Shown here in pieces: positions 5,377 to 57,249 of a stretch of 64,000 nt of DNA. The stretch lies in NCBI GenBank assembly GCA_024679065.1, contig JAGIQG010000040.1, positions 2,480,001-2,544,000 on the forward strand, given 5' to 3'. The position numbers and the translations under genes are program-made. Source of the stretch: Sphyrna mokarran. Lineage: Eukaryota. Under the pieces are notes generated by a model. The model did no database searches. It was not told the DNA's origin and saw only the letters and a list, made by a program, of their open reading frames with translations. The first letter of the stretch is position 1, and each line of letters begins with the position of its first letter.

Positions 5377-6572
5377 TGTAAAGATGCCGGCGTTGGATTG
5401 GAGTGGTAAGAACTCAGTAAGAATTTAGCAACACCAATTATTAATCCAACCGATTTATTTGATAGTAAAAAAGCGAGCTTTCAACACTCTTGTGTCTTCC
5501 TCAGGCAAGTGCAGTGTTCTGGTCTGCAATAGCACACATCAGCACAGACAGTCAGAGATTGCTGATTAGAATGCGAATCCTTACATCTAACCTGCTATTG
5601 AAGTGTTAAAGTGGCTAACAATGTGTGTGAAGGGGATCCTGAGCATTGTTAGAGAGTTGTGTATTTTCTCCAGACAGCACAGTAAGTGAGGTTTTTTGCT
5701 AACCCAGGCAAGTGACGGGGGTTACAGATAGTGTGTCATGAAGCCAAGATCCCTGTTAAGACCGTCCTCATGTGTGCGGAGCTTGGCTATCAGTCTCTGT
5801 TCAGCGACTCTGCGCTGTCGTGTATCACGAAAGCCCCCTTGAAGAACATTTACCCGCAGGTCGGAGGCCGAATGCCCATGACTGCTGAAGTGTTCGCCCA
5901 CAGGAAGGGAACTGTTTTGCCTGGTGATTGTTGAGCGATGCTCATTCATCCGCTGTCGTAGTGTCTGCATGGTCTCCCCAATGTACCATGCTTCGGGACA
6001 TCCTTTCTTGCAACGTATTAGGTAGACAACGTTGGCCGAGTTGCAAGAGTATGTACCGTGTACCTGGTGAATGGTATCCTCACGTTTGATGATGTCGTCC
6101 ATGTCTATGATCTGGCATGTCTTGCAGAGGTTGCTGTGGCAGGGTTGTGTAGTATTGTGGTCACTGCGACAGCGCAGAGTCGCTGAACAGAGACTGATAG
6201 CCAAGCTCCGCACACATGAGGACGGTCTTAACAGGGATCTTGGCTTCATGACACACTATCTGTAACCCCGTAACTTGCCTGGGTTAGCAAAAAACCTCAC
6301 TTACTGTGCTGTCTGGAGAAAATACACAATTCTCTAACAATGCTCAGGATCCCCTTCACACACATTGTTAGCCACTTTAACACTTGAATAGCAGGTTAGA
6401 TGTAAGGATTCGCATTCTAATCAGCAATCTCTGACTGTCTGTGCTGATGTGTGCTATTGCAGACCAGAACACTGCACTTGTCTGATGAAGACACGGGAGT
6501 GTTGAAAGCTCGCTTTTTTACTATCAAATAAATCGGTTGGATTAATAATTGGTGTTGCTAAATTCTTACTGA
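5377..6572 (-). mobile_element. Penelope-like retroelement fragment (GIY-YIG end) with ~400-bp inverted pLTR arms, inserted in a CR1
   Basis: SCNSANVVYLIRCKKGCPEAWYIGET..RQRMNEH. Arms at ~5414-5820 and ~6167-6572; TSD agattacataa. Confidence 0.9.
6476..6515 (+). ncRNA. Minimal hammerhead ribozyme motif in Penelope pLTR
   Basis: CTGATGA-aGACAC-ggga-GTGTT-GAAA-GCTC; mirror copy on the minus strand at ~5472-5510. Confidence 0.7.
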
Positions 6573-10708: not shown

Positions 10709-10993
10709 CCTCACTGACTCCACAGTAATACTCTCCAGCGTCTGACATTGCCGTGTTGTTGATGCCAAGGATGTTATAACTTCTTGTTGGGTCAATAAAG
10801 AGCGTGAACCGCCCCTCTGTGATGTTGCCGCTAATAGTTGATAGGATGAATTTCGGATCTCGATTCCTTAGTTGGCTATACCAATGGACACGGTCGGTGC
10901 CGCTGGTACTTGCATTGCACCGGATTGCAATCGATTGTCCCTCTTGTGCATGTATCAGCTGTGGTTGTTGGATCACTGCCTCTCCGCCCATAA
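10709..10993 (-). CDS. TCR alpha/delta-type V exon, family A copy 1 (V1)
   Basis: Acceptor ttttctcag, then VMGGEAVIQQPQLIHAQEGQSIAIRCNAS..VHWYSQ..DAGEYYCGVSE. Conserved Cys/Trp/YYC, open frame, followed by a 23-RSS. Confidence 0.93.
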
Positions 10994-28053: not shown

Positions 28054-28727
28054 CTGTGTTTACCCCAGTCCGACGCCATCTCTGCATCAAGTCTGATGGC
28101 AGCAGGGAAGAAGCCATTCTTGAATCTGTTGGTATGTGACTTCAGACAATTAAACTTTCTTCCCGATGGTAGAAGGTAGAAGACAGTATGTCTGGGGTGC
28201 ATGGGGGGTCCTTAATTATACTGGTTGCTTTTCCAAGGCAGTGGACAGTGTACACAGAGTCAATGGATTGGGAGGCTGGTTTGCATGGTGGACTCGGCTT
28301 CATTCTCGAATCTTTGCAGTTTCTTACAGTCTTGGGCAGAGCAGGAGCCAAATCAAGCTGTGATACAGGCGTTTACTCTGATAAAAAGTGTTTCCCCTGA
28401 TGCATCTGTAAAAGCTGATGGAAGTCATAGATAACATTCCAAATTTCCTAGTCCCCTGAGAAAATCGCGGCATTGATTTTCTTAGCTATAGTGTCAGCAT
28501 GCCATTTAGGGAAGGAAATTTGCTGTCTTTACCTACTTTGGCTTAATGTGACTCCAGAGTCACCGCAATGTGGTTGACCCTCAACGGCTCTCGGGCACTT
28601 AGGGATGGGCAATACATGCTGGCCAACCAGAGACGCACAAATGAATAATAAAAAAAACAGTGCAAATTATTCTTAGTTTGGTTTATAAAGTTTAGAAGCA
28701 CTCGTCAGTAGGTGGATGAAGGAGGTC

Positions 28728-30068
28728 AAGGTATTGGAGAGAATTATTAGGGATAGGATTTATAGTTATTTAGAGAGAAATGAATTGATTGGGGATAGTC
28801 AGCATGGTTTCGTGAAGGGTAGGTCATGCCTTACTAACCTCATTGATTTTTTTGAGAAAGTGACCAGAGAGGTGGATGGGGGTAAGGCGGTTGATGTAGT
28901 ATATATGGACTTTAGTAAGGCTTTTGATAAGGTGGCCCATGGAAGACTTCTACAGAAAATGCAGATGTGTGGAATAGAGGGTGATTTAGCTAATTGTATT
29001 AGAAATTGGCTGGCAGATAGAAGACAGAGGGTGGTGGTTGATGGGAGATATTCATCGTGGAGTTCGGTGACGAGTGGTGTGCCTCAGGGGTCTGTTTTGG
29101 GGCCCCTGCTGTTTGTAATTTTTAGAAATGATCTGGATGAGGGTATTGAAGGATGGATTAGTAAATTTGCAGATGACACTAAAGTCGGTGGAGTGGTAGA
29201 TAGTGAAGAGGGGTGTTATAGTTTGCAGAGGGACTTGGACAAGTTGCAGAGCGGGGCCGAGAGGTGGCAAATGGAGTTTAATGTGGAAAAGTGTGAGGTA
29301 TGCACTTTGGCAGGAACAATAAATGTGTAGAGTATAAGGCCAATGGTAGGGCTCTTAATAGTGTTGAGGAACAGAAGGATCTTGGTGTATGTGTCAATAG
29401 ATCCCTGAAAGTAGGCAGTCAAGTGGATAAAGTTGTTAAGAAGGCATATGGAGTCTTAGCTTTTATTGGTAGGGGGATTGAATTTAGGAGCCGCAGCATC
29501 ATGTTGCAGCTGTACAAAACTCTAGTGCGGCCGCACTTGGAGTATTGTGTGCAGTTCTGGTCGCCACATTATAATAAAGATGTGGAGGCATTGGAGAGGG
29601 TACAGAGGAGGTTTACCAGGATGTTGCCTGGTATGGAGGGCAGGTCCTATGAAGAGAGGTTGAAGGATTTTAGGTTGTTTTCGTTAGAAAGGAGGCGGCT
29701 AAGAGGGGATCTTATTGAAGCATATAAGATGATTAGAGGTTTAGATAGGGTGGACAGTGATAGCCTTTTTCCTAGGATGGAGAATGCTAGCACGAGGGGA
29801 CACAGCTTTAAATTAAGGGGTATGAGTTATAGGACGGATATCAGAGGTAGGTTCTTTACTCAAAGAGTGATTAGGGAGTGGAATGCCCTGCCTGCAGCTG
29901 TTGTAGATGCGCCAAGTTTGGTGGCGTTTAAGAGGTTAGTTGATAAGTATATGGATGAGAAGGGAATGGTTTAGTTAGGAGGGGCATTGCTTTTTATTTT
30001 GGTCGGCACAACATCGAAGGCCGAAGGGCCTGTTCTGTGCTGTATTGTTCTATGTTCTATGTTCTATG
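28728..30068 (+). mobile_element. CR1 LINE, 1.3-kb RT/3' end, young
   Basis: [37 protein letters not shown]; one frameshift. Confidence 0.95.
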
Positions 30069-35532: not shown

Positions 35533-36942
35533 CAAGAAATATTTTAAAACTTCCAAAGCATCCCTATTTGTGTCCTTATGCCCTTGTTAAAATTCAAGGC
35601 CTTCTTGAAGGCTTACAAATAACTGCAATTAGCAATTAGATCAATCTTTAGTCTCTGTGTCCCATTTATCATAGTGGGGGTGCGTAGTGTCTATATGATT
35701 AGAACGTGTTGCTGGATGAGACACGTAGAAAATTAATACGTTTTGCAATGTACCGATTACACTTTTAGTTGCATCAATATTTATTTTCCTTTCAACTGAT
35801 TGTTTTCTGACACAATTGGCAGACCAATATTTTTGGCTTAACATAACCAGGCTTTAACCATAAGACCATATGAAGTAGAATTAGGATAGGGCCTCTCGAG
35901 CCTGCTCCGTCATTTAATGGAATCGTCGCTAATCCAACATTCTCACCCTCACTTTGCTGTCCTTTTCTTGTAACCCTTGGTTCACTTATTGATCAAAAAT
36001 CTATCTATCTCAGTCTTAAATATACACAATGACTCTACCACCACAGATCTCTGTAGCAATGAGTTCAAAAGACTTACAAACCTCAGAAAGAAGAAATTGC
36101 TCCTCATCTTAGTTTTCAATTGGCGTCCCTCTATTCTGAGACTGTGCCCTCTGTTCCTGGGTTCTTCCATTAGGGGGAGCATCCTCTCAGCATTTACCAT
36201 GTTAACCGCTAGGAGTGGGAAGAAAGACACTGAATTAAATTCAATATTGGAGCGAGTGTCGTTGTTGAAGAGAATCTGATTGATGGAACAAATGAGGAAA
36301 CACAAACGTAATTATAACACTGATATCAAACTTGTTATTTCAAAAAATATTCTTATGAGTTTTCAGTGTTGCTATTCCTGTGGTTATGTAACAAATATTC
36401 GATAGAAAGACCAGTTCCCATTACACAAGTTCCCAAATTATCGAACGATATTTTAGGACTAACATCTGGGCCTTCTTGTCACACCGGGATTGGTCACCGT
36501 GTGGAATAAAACTTCAGCAAGAGTGAGGAAGGAAAGTACATTGCAGTCGTTGGATAGCCGAGTAAATGAAAGTTCTCCCGCAATAGAAAGTCTATAACAA
36601 GAAAGAGTAAACAGCTGTTCTCATTTGCAACTGTCTTGCGAATTGCAACTTGTCGATCGTCCAAGTGGGGAATCGCACCTTGCAATTACCAATACGCACC
36701 AGAAGAGAGCAGTATGAGGCATAAGAAGTATTTAAACTGGGCGGGTCAGGTGAGTCCTCAAAGGCTGTGTGAGCTGGTGTCAATGTTGAGCGCTCAGTGT
36801 GGAGGAAGAATGGTGAAAGGAGAACCCGCCTACTGTTGTTAGTTCAACAGAAACACGGCACTAAACTGGACACGAAGAAAGCATTTGGCTCCCGGTTAAC
36901 TTTCATCTTCTGGTTCTAAGCTGATCTCAGTGTCAACCGAGA

Positions 36943-37275
36943 ATGCTCAAGATTTGCGTCGACTTTTTGCTGTTTTTCGCTCTGATCTGTACGGGGGTGA
37001 GCGGAGAAGCTGAGTTGCTGCAGGCCCCTCCACGGATGGTTGTCAGTGAAGCCGGAAATGTGTCCATGAACTGCACCAGCTCCATTACATTTCAGGTCCT
37101 GCATTGGTACAAACAGCTCCCGAAACAGCCACCCCAGCATCTGGTGATGGCCACAAGAGGAACCGATCAACATGGCAGGATAACTGCTTCGATCGATAAA
37201 AGCAACAAACTCAGCGTCCTGACTGTGAGAGACGTACAGGTTTCAGACGCTGCCGCCTATCTTTGCGCCGTGAGG
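36943..37275 (+). CDS. TCR alpha-type V segment with leader and V in one ORF (V5)
   Basis: MLKICVDFLLFFALICTGVSG signal-like peptide is contiguous with EAELLQAPP..MNC..LHWYKQ..DAAAYLCAVR. Confidence 0.88.
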
Positions 37276-37314
37276 CACACTGTTGCAAACACAGGGAGAT
37301 CTCGTACAGAAACC
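37276..37314 (+). other. 23-RSS of V5
   Basis: CACACTG + 23 nt + ACAGAAACC. Confidence 0.85.
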
Positions 37315-46649: not shown

Positions 46650-47975
46650 TTCCTATTTTAAATCAGTTTTCTATACCCCTCCATTCCCATTCTGTTCATG
46701 TGCCCATCTAAGTATTTCTTAAATAACTCCAGAGTACCTGCCTCCACCACTTTACTTGGCAGCGCATTCCATACCCTCACCACCCTCTGTGTGAAAAAAC
46801 TCCCTCTAGCATCCAAATTATACCTTACCCCCCTCACCCTAAGCCCGTGACCCCTCGTGCCATTCGAGTCCATCCTAGGAAAAAGCTTAACCCTGTTTAC
46901 TCTATCTATACCCTCATAATCTTGTACACCTCTATAGATCTCCTCTAAGTCTACGCCTTTCTAAGGAAAACATCCAATTTGCCTAACCTCTCCTCGTAAC
47001 TCAGACCTTCCATACCAGGCAGCATCCTGGTAAACCTCCTCTGCACTCTCTCCAGAGTCTCCACGTCCTTCCGGTAGTAAGGCGACCAGAACTGGACGAA
47101 TATTCCAAATGAGGTCTAACCAACGTTTTATACAACTGCAACATTAAAGGCCAGCTCTTGTACTCTATACCCCTTCCTATAAAGGCTAACATACTATATG
47201 CTTTCTTCACAACCTTCTCCACTTGCTCTGCCACCTTCAGAGACTTGTTCACCTGCACCCCCAGGTCCCTCTGCGTTTCTATACTCTTAATAGGTCTACC
47301 CTTTATCATATACCTCCCCCCTACATTCTTTCTCCCGAAATGCATCACCTCACATTTATCAGGATTGAATTCCATCTGCCATCTATCTGCCCAAGCTACC
47401 AGCCTATCTATGTCCTGCTGCATCGCCTGACAATGCTCCTCACTATCCGCAAGTCCAGCCATCTTTGTATCGTCTGCAAACTTGCTGATCACTCCACTTA
47501 CTCCCTCTTCCAAGTCATTTATATATATTACAAATAGAAGAGGTCCCAGTACCGAGCCCTGCGGCACACCACTAGTGACCGACCTCCAGCTAGAAAAACA
47601 CCCTTCCACTATTACTCTCTGTCTCCTATTACCAAGCCAGTTACTTATCCATCTAGCTACCTGTCCTTGTATCCCGTTAGCCTTGACCTTCTCAACTAAC
47701 CTCCCATGAGGGACTTTGCAAACGCCTTACTAAAATCCATATAGACGACATCAACGGGTCGCCCTTCGTCCACCGTTTTCGTTACCTCCTCAAAAAAATC
47801 TACCAGATTTGTAAGGCACGACCTCCCCTTAACAAATCCAGGCTACGTATCCCTAATCAGATCACAACACTCTAAGTGCCTATACATCCTATCTCTAAGG
47901 ATCCCGTCCAACAGCTTCCCTACCACTGACGTCAAACTCACCGGTCTATAATTTCCAGGGTTATCCCTACTACCA
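46650..47975 (-). mobile_element. CR1 LINE RT/3' fragment
   Basis: [18 protein letters not shown]. Confidence 0.9.
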
Positions 47976-55518: not shown

Positions 55519-56420
55519 TCATCGTTTAATGAATTTTGTAAGGACAGTAATAGGATATGTCACCACATATCTGAACTCCTCTCTAAACTTCGCCTGGGTT
55601 ACAGCATAAATACAAGTGTTTGTACAACAACTTATGAGCTGCAGCATGAAGCCCATTTCCAATACAAACTCAGGAAGCAGCACAGATTCATGCCCCAAAA
55701 CCCACATTCGCCACCATACAGAATACACCATAAACATTGTCCAAAACAATATGAAATTTGCTGAGATAACAAATAGCAAAATGATGGATTTCCTTCGGTT
55801 TTCCATCTCTGGGTCACTTGTACGCTCTCCACTGCTGTTACCTCTGAGTCTCTTTCGGGCTCTGCTGGCCACGAATACATTTCTGATGGTTAAATTGTTG
55901 AGCAGCAAAATCAGAACAAATGGGACACATGGAGTAAAGATATTATGAAGGAATTCGATTGTCGCCCAGACCTCAGATTCCATAACACCGCTTCTCACCT
56001 CGCAAAACCAAGGGAAATTTAAAAGCCAATATCTTGGTGATAGCATGTAATACCAGAAAATATTCTTTAAGCCACTCAGCACTGTCACCGTCCCCAAGAC
56101 AACAAGTGTGATTTTCACATTGCAATATTTAACTTTCACCTTCTGCCAGCAAATTGCTACAAATCTATCAAAAGTGAAACTGACAGTGAACCAGACTGAA
56201 CAGTCTGTTACTGCATAAAGCAGGACAGCGTGAGTATTGCACACACGCATATCATACACAAAAGTAAACTGTTTCCAATAAACAATAGGAATGTGTCTCA
56301 ATATCAGGTCAAAGATCACGACCAGTAGATCTGCTGATGCCATGGCCACCAGATAGCACGTGATGCATTTGGAGAGACCACATTTACCCCGGCACAGGAT
56401 TACAATTGTCAGCAAGTTCA
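55519..56420 (-). CDS. GPR139/GPR142-like class A GPCR, copy B, exon 2
   Basis: 300-codon ORF: NLLTIVIL, YLVAMASADLL, FTFDRFVAIC, PFVLILLLN, SCCTNTCIY..KFREEF; acceptor ccgcacag. Confidence 0.92.
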
Positions 56421-57249
56421 CTGTGCGGAAGTGAAAAGAATTATGTATCAGTCATTTTTATTCATTCACTGGACATGACTTAATCAACATTGGTATACAT
56501 TCCTAATTTCCTTGTAAAGATGGCAGTGAGCTACATTCTTGAGCTGCCACATTCGAAGTGGTGTATCTATACCCATAATGCTATTGAATTGCTTCTGTAA
56601 GCATTACTATCAGTTTCACTGAGTAATTACTAAATCTGTAAATTGTGCAATTCTATACATTAATGCATTCAAACGAACATTTCAATGAGAGTATTCTTTC
56701 TGCTGACAATGTGGCACACAATTTGCTTAAACAACTTTAAGACAAGAGTTCATTTTTTGGGTAAAATATTATATGTGGTTCTACATTTGAACAGACATCA
56801 GATAAAGTTTACTGCAGAGCTGAAGATGCCTTTCATTCTCCAGTGCAAAGAATTTTAGTCCTGCAGCGAATACTAAGAAAAACGTAATGACAGCAATTTC
56901 TCATTCTGGGAAGTGGAACTGAGTTTGTGGAGCTTGGGTAGCCTCATAGAGTGAGCTACGTTTGCTGTTGGAGATCGTCTGTTTGGAGAACTACCATCGA
57001 CTCCTCCTCTACGTCGTTGCATATTGAAACTTGTTCTGCAGAAAACATAGGAGGTTGTGCGACGAAGTGGAATGCTTATTAGGGAAAGAATCGAAACTCA
57101 GTCAATTATTGATCTTGCCCCATTCGGTGTGTGATACCGCCACGGAGTAGGCCACTGTTCCTTCTATTCATAAGTGACCTTTTGTTAAGGCTGTGAGAAT
57201 GACAGCCGAAATCATGTTCCTCATTAGTTTCCTATCACTTTTTAAAAGT

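Follow-up and report, generated by a model that had tools for sequence, protein, structure and literature searches.

The split leader has been called canonical for all antigen-receptor genes in the part of PMC12227049 consulted. A V segment at 36943–37314 (+) of the window analyzed here, a 64,000-nt stretch of the Sphyrna mokarran genome (G000:C994:2480001–2544000; 2.77 Gb searched), raises the question of whether a V gene can function with its leader and V domain in one exon and, if so, how that state arose. Its ATG at 36943 opens a 21-residue, signal-peptide-like leader, MLKICVDFLLFFALICTGVSG, which stays in the frame of the V domain up to 37275 with no stop, bearing out the first-pass annotation's observation that a good signal peptide runs straight into the V domain. 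Fused to the V exon is an L-PART1-equivalent of 17 codons + 1 nt (36943–36994), followed by an L-PART2-equivalent of 11 nt (36995–37005; G-V-S-G) that begins where the acceptor lies in most intron-bearing V genes, usually 77 nt ahead of the first Cys codon; the expected phase-1 acceptor site itself, at 36993–36994, reads GG. The TCR alpha/delta-type V region (37006–37275) contains both Cys, the conserved Trp, and the YxC motif, matches the Pfam V-set domain with an E value of 4.5e-11, and finds its best PDB matches mostly among TCR alpha chains. A 23-RSS (37276–37314; heptamer CACACTG, 23-nt spacer, nonamer ACAGAAACC) follows, intact as had been reported, and its heptamer and nonamer variants recur at other V genes in the locus. 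The leader has the hydropathy, basic n-region, and V-x-G end of a signal peptide, and cleavage is predicted after Gly21 by the -3/-1 rule and position. A processed retrocopy is ruled out by the RSS and by upstream DNA held in common with paralogues. The search for C-alpha (PF09291) was silent everywhere, its own controls included, and V17843, a neighbor in the window, looks by eye like nurse shark aV1.

This segment is one of many. A six-frame search of the genome returned 16 near full-length hits (53 to 100% identity) and two split copies; C994 holds 13 intact copies, 12 of them distinct, together with one frameshifted and two insertion-interrupted copies, and two hits on C742 are duplicates of C994 copies. 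The 12 distinct intact paralogues have 52 to 76% identity to the V at 36943, and in every one the ATG stands 43 codons ahead of the first Cys with A at -3, the leader is 21 residues long, and a 23-RSS follows. An acceptor AG at leader nt 51–52, where a phase-1 intron between L-PART1 and L-PART2 would end, occurs in 0 of the 12; at 36943, an in-frame ATG leader continuous with the V domain is combined with a retained RSS. The fused leader is kept in the frameshifted and interrupted copies too. A germline-joined retro-V of the TRMVj type is ruled out, the RSS being intact in 12/12 members. The first-pass annotation had allowed that the true sequence might read tacag rather than tacgg, which is untenable given the fused state of 12 paralogues and of bamboo-shark orthologues (see below); the agreement of the 12 paralogues excludes a read or assembly error, and a local or recent event does not fit a state common to all of these genes. 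Two family copies (L065 and L076, on C994 near 5.915 and 5.774 Mb) are split after CDR1, seemingly by the same ~0.9-kb insertion. Identical V hits also link C742 with C994:4.91–4.93 Mb and, within C994, 5.2–5.3 Mb with 6.2–6.3 Mb, and these blocks are either recent segmental duplications or assembly duplicates.

Divergence within the family indicates that the leader is maintained as coding sequence. Ungapped identity between the two subfamilies is 0.66 in the L-PART1-equivalent and 0.31 and 0.25 in two 63-nt blocks upstream, compared with a mean of 0.69 for real L-PART1 and a mean of 0.45 (maximum, 0.62) for intron ends at matching V divergence, a reference made up of 33 non-independent pairs of intron-bearing genes. 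The blastn alignment of L004 and L013 begins at the ATG (80%, E 5e-12), and the family-wide conservation of the leader from that point on excludes a recent acceptor mutation; a read error is set aside for the same reason, the leader matching a real leader exon in its conservation from the ATG onward. In neutral simulations on a third-position tree, the ATG, open frame, and hydrophobicity were kept in all 12 members in 46 of 2,000 runs. Leader pN/pS was 0.66 in frame and 0.89 and 0.96 in the shifted frames, values compared without a significance test. The codon-position composition of the fused leader is leader-like, and its first codon positions (0.38 T, 0.04 G) are closer to those of intron ends than to those of leaders. 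A scan for a phase-1 leader exon within 1.4 kb upstream found none in any of the 12 members; in a partly circular control with known leader exons it recovered 53 of 58, and it also left 9 acceptor-bearing V genes without a leader exon. Judged from these sequence comparisons, selection acts on the fused leader in its role as a leader, and its translation in the present form is likely; we consider it highly probable that the single-exon architecture is functional. Under the 12/23 rule, RAG would join such a V to J (or D); the transcript would need J-C splicing only, and the 21-residue leader would target the chain to the endoplasmic reticulum, where the cut after Gly21 would leave an ordinary TCR V domain.

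A different account would have the leader come from an upstream exon, either a mini-exon at 36714–36749 spliced to 36931 or a leader exon as yet unseen, or would make the segment a dead-acceptor pseudogene; we regard this account as quite improbable. The first-pass annotation had proposed the mini-exon with its donor (36714–36755, +), and the signals that it named are real, namely, the donor cag|gtgagt at 36750 and an in-frame AG before 36931. Scored with a matrix built from 45 locus donors, the 36750 site reaches 12.0 (median of real donors, 10.2), a value equaled at only 6 sites in 128 kb, and L002 and L003 keep a donor at the equivalent position (9.7). Use of the mini-exon, which would add a 16-residue extension, fares poorly, however: at -3.3, the 36931 acceptor falls short of every one of 53 real acceptors (minimum, 1.2); none of the three closest paralogues (L002, L004, and L005) has the mini-exon ATG, and two of them, L002 and L005, have an in-frame TGA; 10 of the 12 distinct members have a weak donor or no donor at all; and the stretch is not conserved as coding sequence. 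The constraint on the fused leader and the rearranged family cDNAs of nurse shark (see below) also speak against an upstream exon. A noncoding, 101-nt UTR intron at 36750–36850, ending at a weak acceptor (score 3.1), would drop two upstream ATGs and leave the protein unaltered; the 36750 site is at most a 5′UTR intron donor. The donor overlaps a CAGGTG E-box that is adjoined by GC-rich and TATA-like motifs, the latter (TATTTAAA, 36729–36736, +) present in 4/4 members of the subfamily as a putative promoter element, and our guess is that the region has a promoter role.

Other V genes of the locus follow the usual plan. As annotated previously, a phase-1 intron splits the leader of each of the other five in the window (706, 717, 76, 81, and 115 nt); the introns of 706 and 717 nt (V near 10900, -, and 17600, +) apparently grew by repeat insertion, with splice sites intact. 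A further 80 loci were drawn from the genome hit list by similarity to the query, so the sample is not the whole locus. Among the resulting 86 distinct V cores, 15 belong to the family, 58 have a leader exon and acceptor, 9 have an acceptor only, 2 have acceptors that fail the filter, 1 is without upstream DNA, and 1 (L068) is single exon; the canonical acceptor filter was passed by 67 of the 71 nonfamily cores. The family agrees with intron-bearing V genes in leader length, L-PART2 position, V hallmarks, and 23-RSS and differs from them in the absence of the intron. L068 (101–451, -; G000:C994:3426453–3426803) is a second, single-copy, unrelated single-exon V with a fused 20-residue leader, an intact RSS, a CRE-like motif at -72, and TATA at -60. 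Its leader contains a strong phase-0 acceptor (score 9.6), and it may be either a case of exonization or a user of an unseen upstream exon. One clade of the family and L068 was rejected by the AU test (p=0.031).

In other species, HMMER run against 1.84 billion representatives, together with a profile search, yielded three full-length relatives that carry this leader: two Chiloscyllium punctatum gene models, P0006 and P0160, and a JGI ORF, P0003. Each continues into an RSS-like tail, and because they read through the RSS, each is a germline ORF; their single-exon structure is inferred here from protein records. The comparison with other chondrichthyans that the first-pass annotation had called for thus gave the same fused leader in the two C. 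punctatum protein records. The homologue search with the single sequence at 36943 returned no match, nor did a profile search of longer proteins; a metagenome locus scan with P0003 confirmed 0 of 98 candidates, and an ESM Atlas query with P0006 met generic V-set clusters only. In the portion of supplement 3 of PMC5931798 consulted, a table of nurse-shark TCR-alpha cDNAs, 7 of 19 rows labeled "aV9" match the family by eye through the shared motifs QPPQHLVMA and ERITAS and a short CDR2 region, 1 matches the sister gene L017, and the remaining 11 represent unrelated V types. Because each row starts with the mature V, these rearranged cDNAs document rearrangement and expression, with the leader outside them. 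By eye, the "aV9" label in that table lumps at least four unrelated V types, and the portion of PMC5931798 consulted makes no mention of the exon structure of "aV9" genes. The family motif was found in none of 18 of the 19 supplementary files of Giorgetti 2023.

Single-exon leaders are best documented in birds, and the first-pass annotation had suggested testing for shared ancestry. According to the part of PMC10972964 consulted, 45 of 48 chicken TRAV1 and most TRGV1 genes have single-exon leaders, a feature called unique to chicken V-alpha-1, and that part offers no mechanism for their origin. Like the shark family, chicken TRAV1 and TRGV1 are unrearranged V genes with an RSS and with leader and V in one exon, and chicken TRAV1 is likewise expanded within the TRA/D locus; this likeness of architecture and locus type (PMC10972964, in the same part) would favor a single ancestral origin of the intronless state for the shark family and avian TRAV1, as would the poor resolution of deep nodes in a tree of 94 columns. 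The shark V lineage, in a cartilaginous fish, is nevertheless unrelated. Tests on a 41-row subset (94 columns, LG+G4), which provide moderate evidence, placed the family with P0006, P0160, and P0003 in one clade (support, 100/97), joined by the intron-bearing L017 and Callorhinchus P0073 (97/94). Two bird TRAV1-type domains, P0113 (curlew) and P0127 (song sparrow), grouped apart from the shark clade with a sheep-hybrid V (97/87), and one clade of the family and these domains was rejected (AU p=0.018). The nearest relative of the shark clade in the Sphyrna genome, L017, has the intron, and the QVQQ motif of the avian TRAV1 lineage is absent from the V at 36943. Common inheritance is thus very improbable. 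A quick 98-row tree nests P0006, P0160, and P0003 within the family, and with orthologues nested in this way the fused state is likely older than the split from carpet sharks. We conclude that the single-exon family of the shark TCR alpha/delta locus is real, old, and convergent with that of birds, and that it is likely functional.

How the intron disappeared is a separate matter. Our main reading, to which we assign a probability of roughly 55%, is that the architecture is single exon and that the intron was lost once, precisely, before the split from carpet sharks. The phase-1 intron would have been removed exactly in the germ line, with promoter and RSS left in place, most likely when a spliced, unrearranged V transcript was reverse transcribed and the product recombined with the gene, or else by an end-joining deletion, and tandem duplication would then have spread the intronless copy. 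Both RT-mediated conversion and end-joining take out introns exactly, and reverse transcriptase works in trans. The first-pass annotation's proposal of precise loss through a spliced germline transcript is therefore favored as a route, without the local reverse-transcriptase setting that it invoked: RVT_1 was present in 2 of 14 scanned non-V ORFs, which is uninformative, and nearby RT fragments are irrelevant to the intron state because the event predates the spread of the family. Retroelement fragments lie at 28689–29330 (+), 47001–47726 (-), and 5722–6255 (-), two with RVT_1 and one with GIY-YIG.

Alternatively, the leader may be the pyrimidine-rich 3′ end of the old intron, in which an in-frame ATG arose, acag became acgg, and the old leader exon decayed. 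This corresponds to the earlier suggestion that the pyrimidine tract is a former acceptor, which survives as an old exonization and fails as a recent acceptor change; we hold it to be possible, if on the improbable side. Such a change would be easy, since an in-frame ATG with hydrophobic read-through inside the intron exists in 5 of 60 intron-bearing V genes (L017, L019, L084, and the window V genes near 10900, -, and 33600, -, the sisters L017 and L019 thus among them) and an in-frame stop is absent from 26 of 44 intron ends. The T-rich first codon positions, the strong acceptor (9.6) within the fused leader of L068, and an invariant Thr17 that fits an xCA|G acceptor codon point the same way, although several real L-PART1 exons likewise have Thr as their last residue ahead of the junction. 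Similarity of the fused leader to the leader exon of the sister L017 (p=0.20 for DNA, p=0.46 for protein) or to the sister intron end (p=0.31 and 0.20) is not significant; the latter result counts against exonization, and sequence similarity to the sister does not decide the origin. Precise loss is favored by the leader length of 17 codons + 1 nt, inside the range of real L-PART1 in the locus (11 to 19 codons), and weakly by ETS/CRE-like motifs 215 to 270 nt upstream in the larger subfamily and L017.

A candidate relic of the old leader exon bears on the same choice. In L013 to L016 (4 of 12 members), an 18-codon, mildly hydrophobic ORF ~420 to 350 nt upstream of the ATG runs to a phase-0 donor ~370 nt upstream; its counterpart in L006 to L010 has lost the ATG and contains stops. 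Such a remnant would speak for exonization, but this one is in phase 0, is missing in 8 of 12 members, and is unlike the sister L-PART1 (p>=0.065), and similar features appear in 18 of 90 background tiles at the scan thresholds and 6 of 90 at stricter, post hoc thresholds, 5 true leader exons being included in both counts. The ORF is possibly a relic leader exon and possibly chance.

Comparison with other known systems suggests that the architecture itself is already known, that its shark instance appears to be new, and that the receptor protein is predicted to be ordinary. Opossum TRMVj, described in the consulted parts of PMC2275272 and PMC6170632, also lacks a leader intron, for which retrotransposition or intron deletion was proposed (PMC2275272), but it is germline joined to D and J, whereas the shark family keeps its RSS and must rearrange. 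The parts consulted of PMC5931798, PMC5278385, PMC12698447, and PMC10322711 contain no shark V with a single-exon leader; a wider literature search also gave none, with the main shark TCR locus papers outside its scope and absence from print thus not established. Since the old shark family arose apart from the bird case, V function can do without the leader intron for long periods, and the family, expanded and apparently functional, breaks the split-leader rule in those jawed vertebrates with TCRs that branched off earliest. V-gene finders that demand a splice acceptor would miss or mislabel the whole family, and a newt TCR annotation was run with single-exon search switched off (PMC12698447, in the part consulted). 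More tentatively, and at somewhat less than even odds, the shark locus lost the split leader at least twice (the family and L068) and birds lost it again, with at least one loss through germline reverse transcription of V transcripts or conversion of a polypyrimidine tract into a signal peptide. If that is true, the latent read-through leaders of other V genes in the locus are intermediates. The shark locus is a tractable place to compare intron loss with exonization. Elsewhere in the window, a 310-residue open frame at 55519–56451 (-), whose 5′ end is without an ATG, matches 7tm_1 (rhodopsin-family GPCR) with an E value of 1.6e-17.
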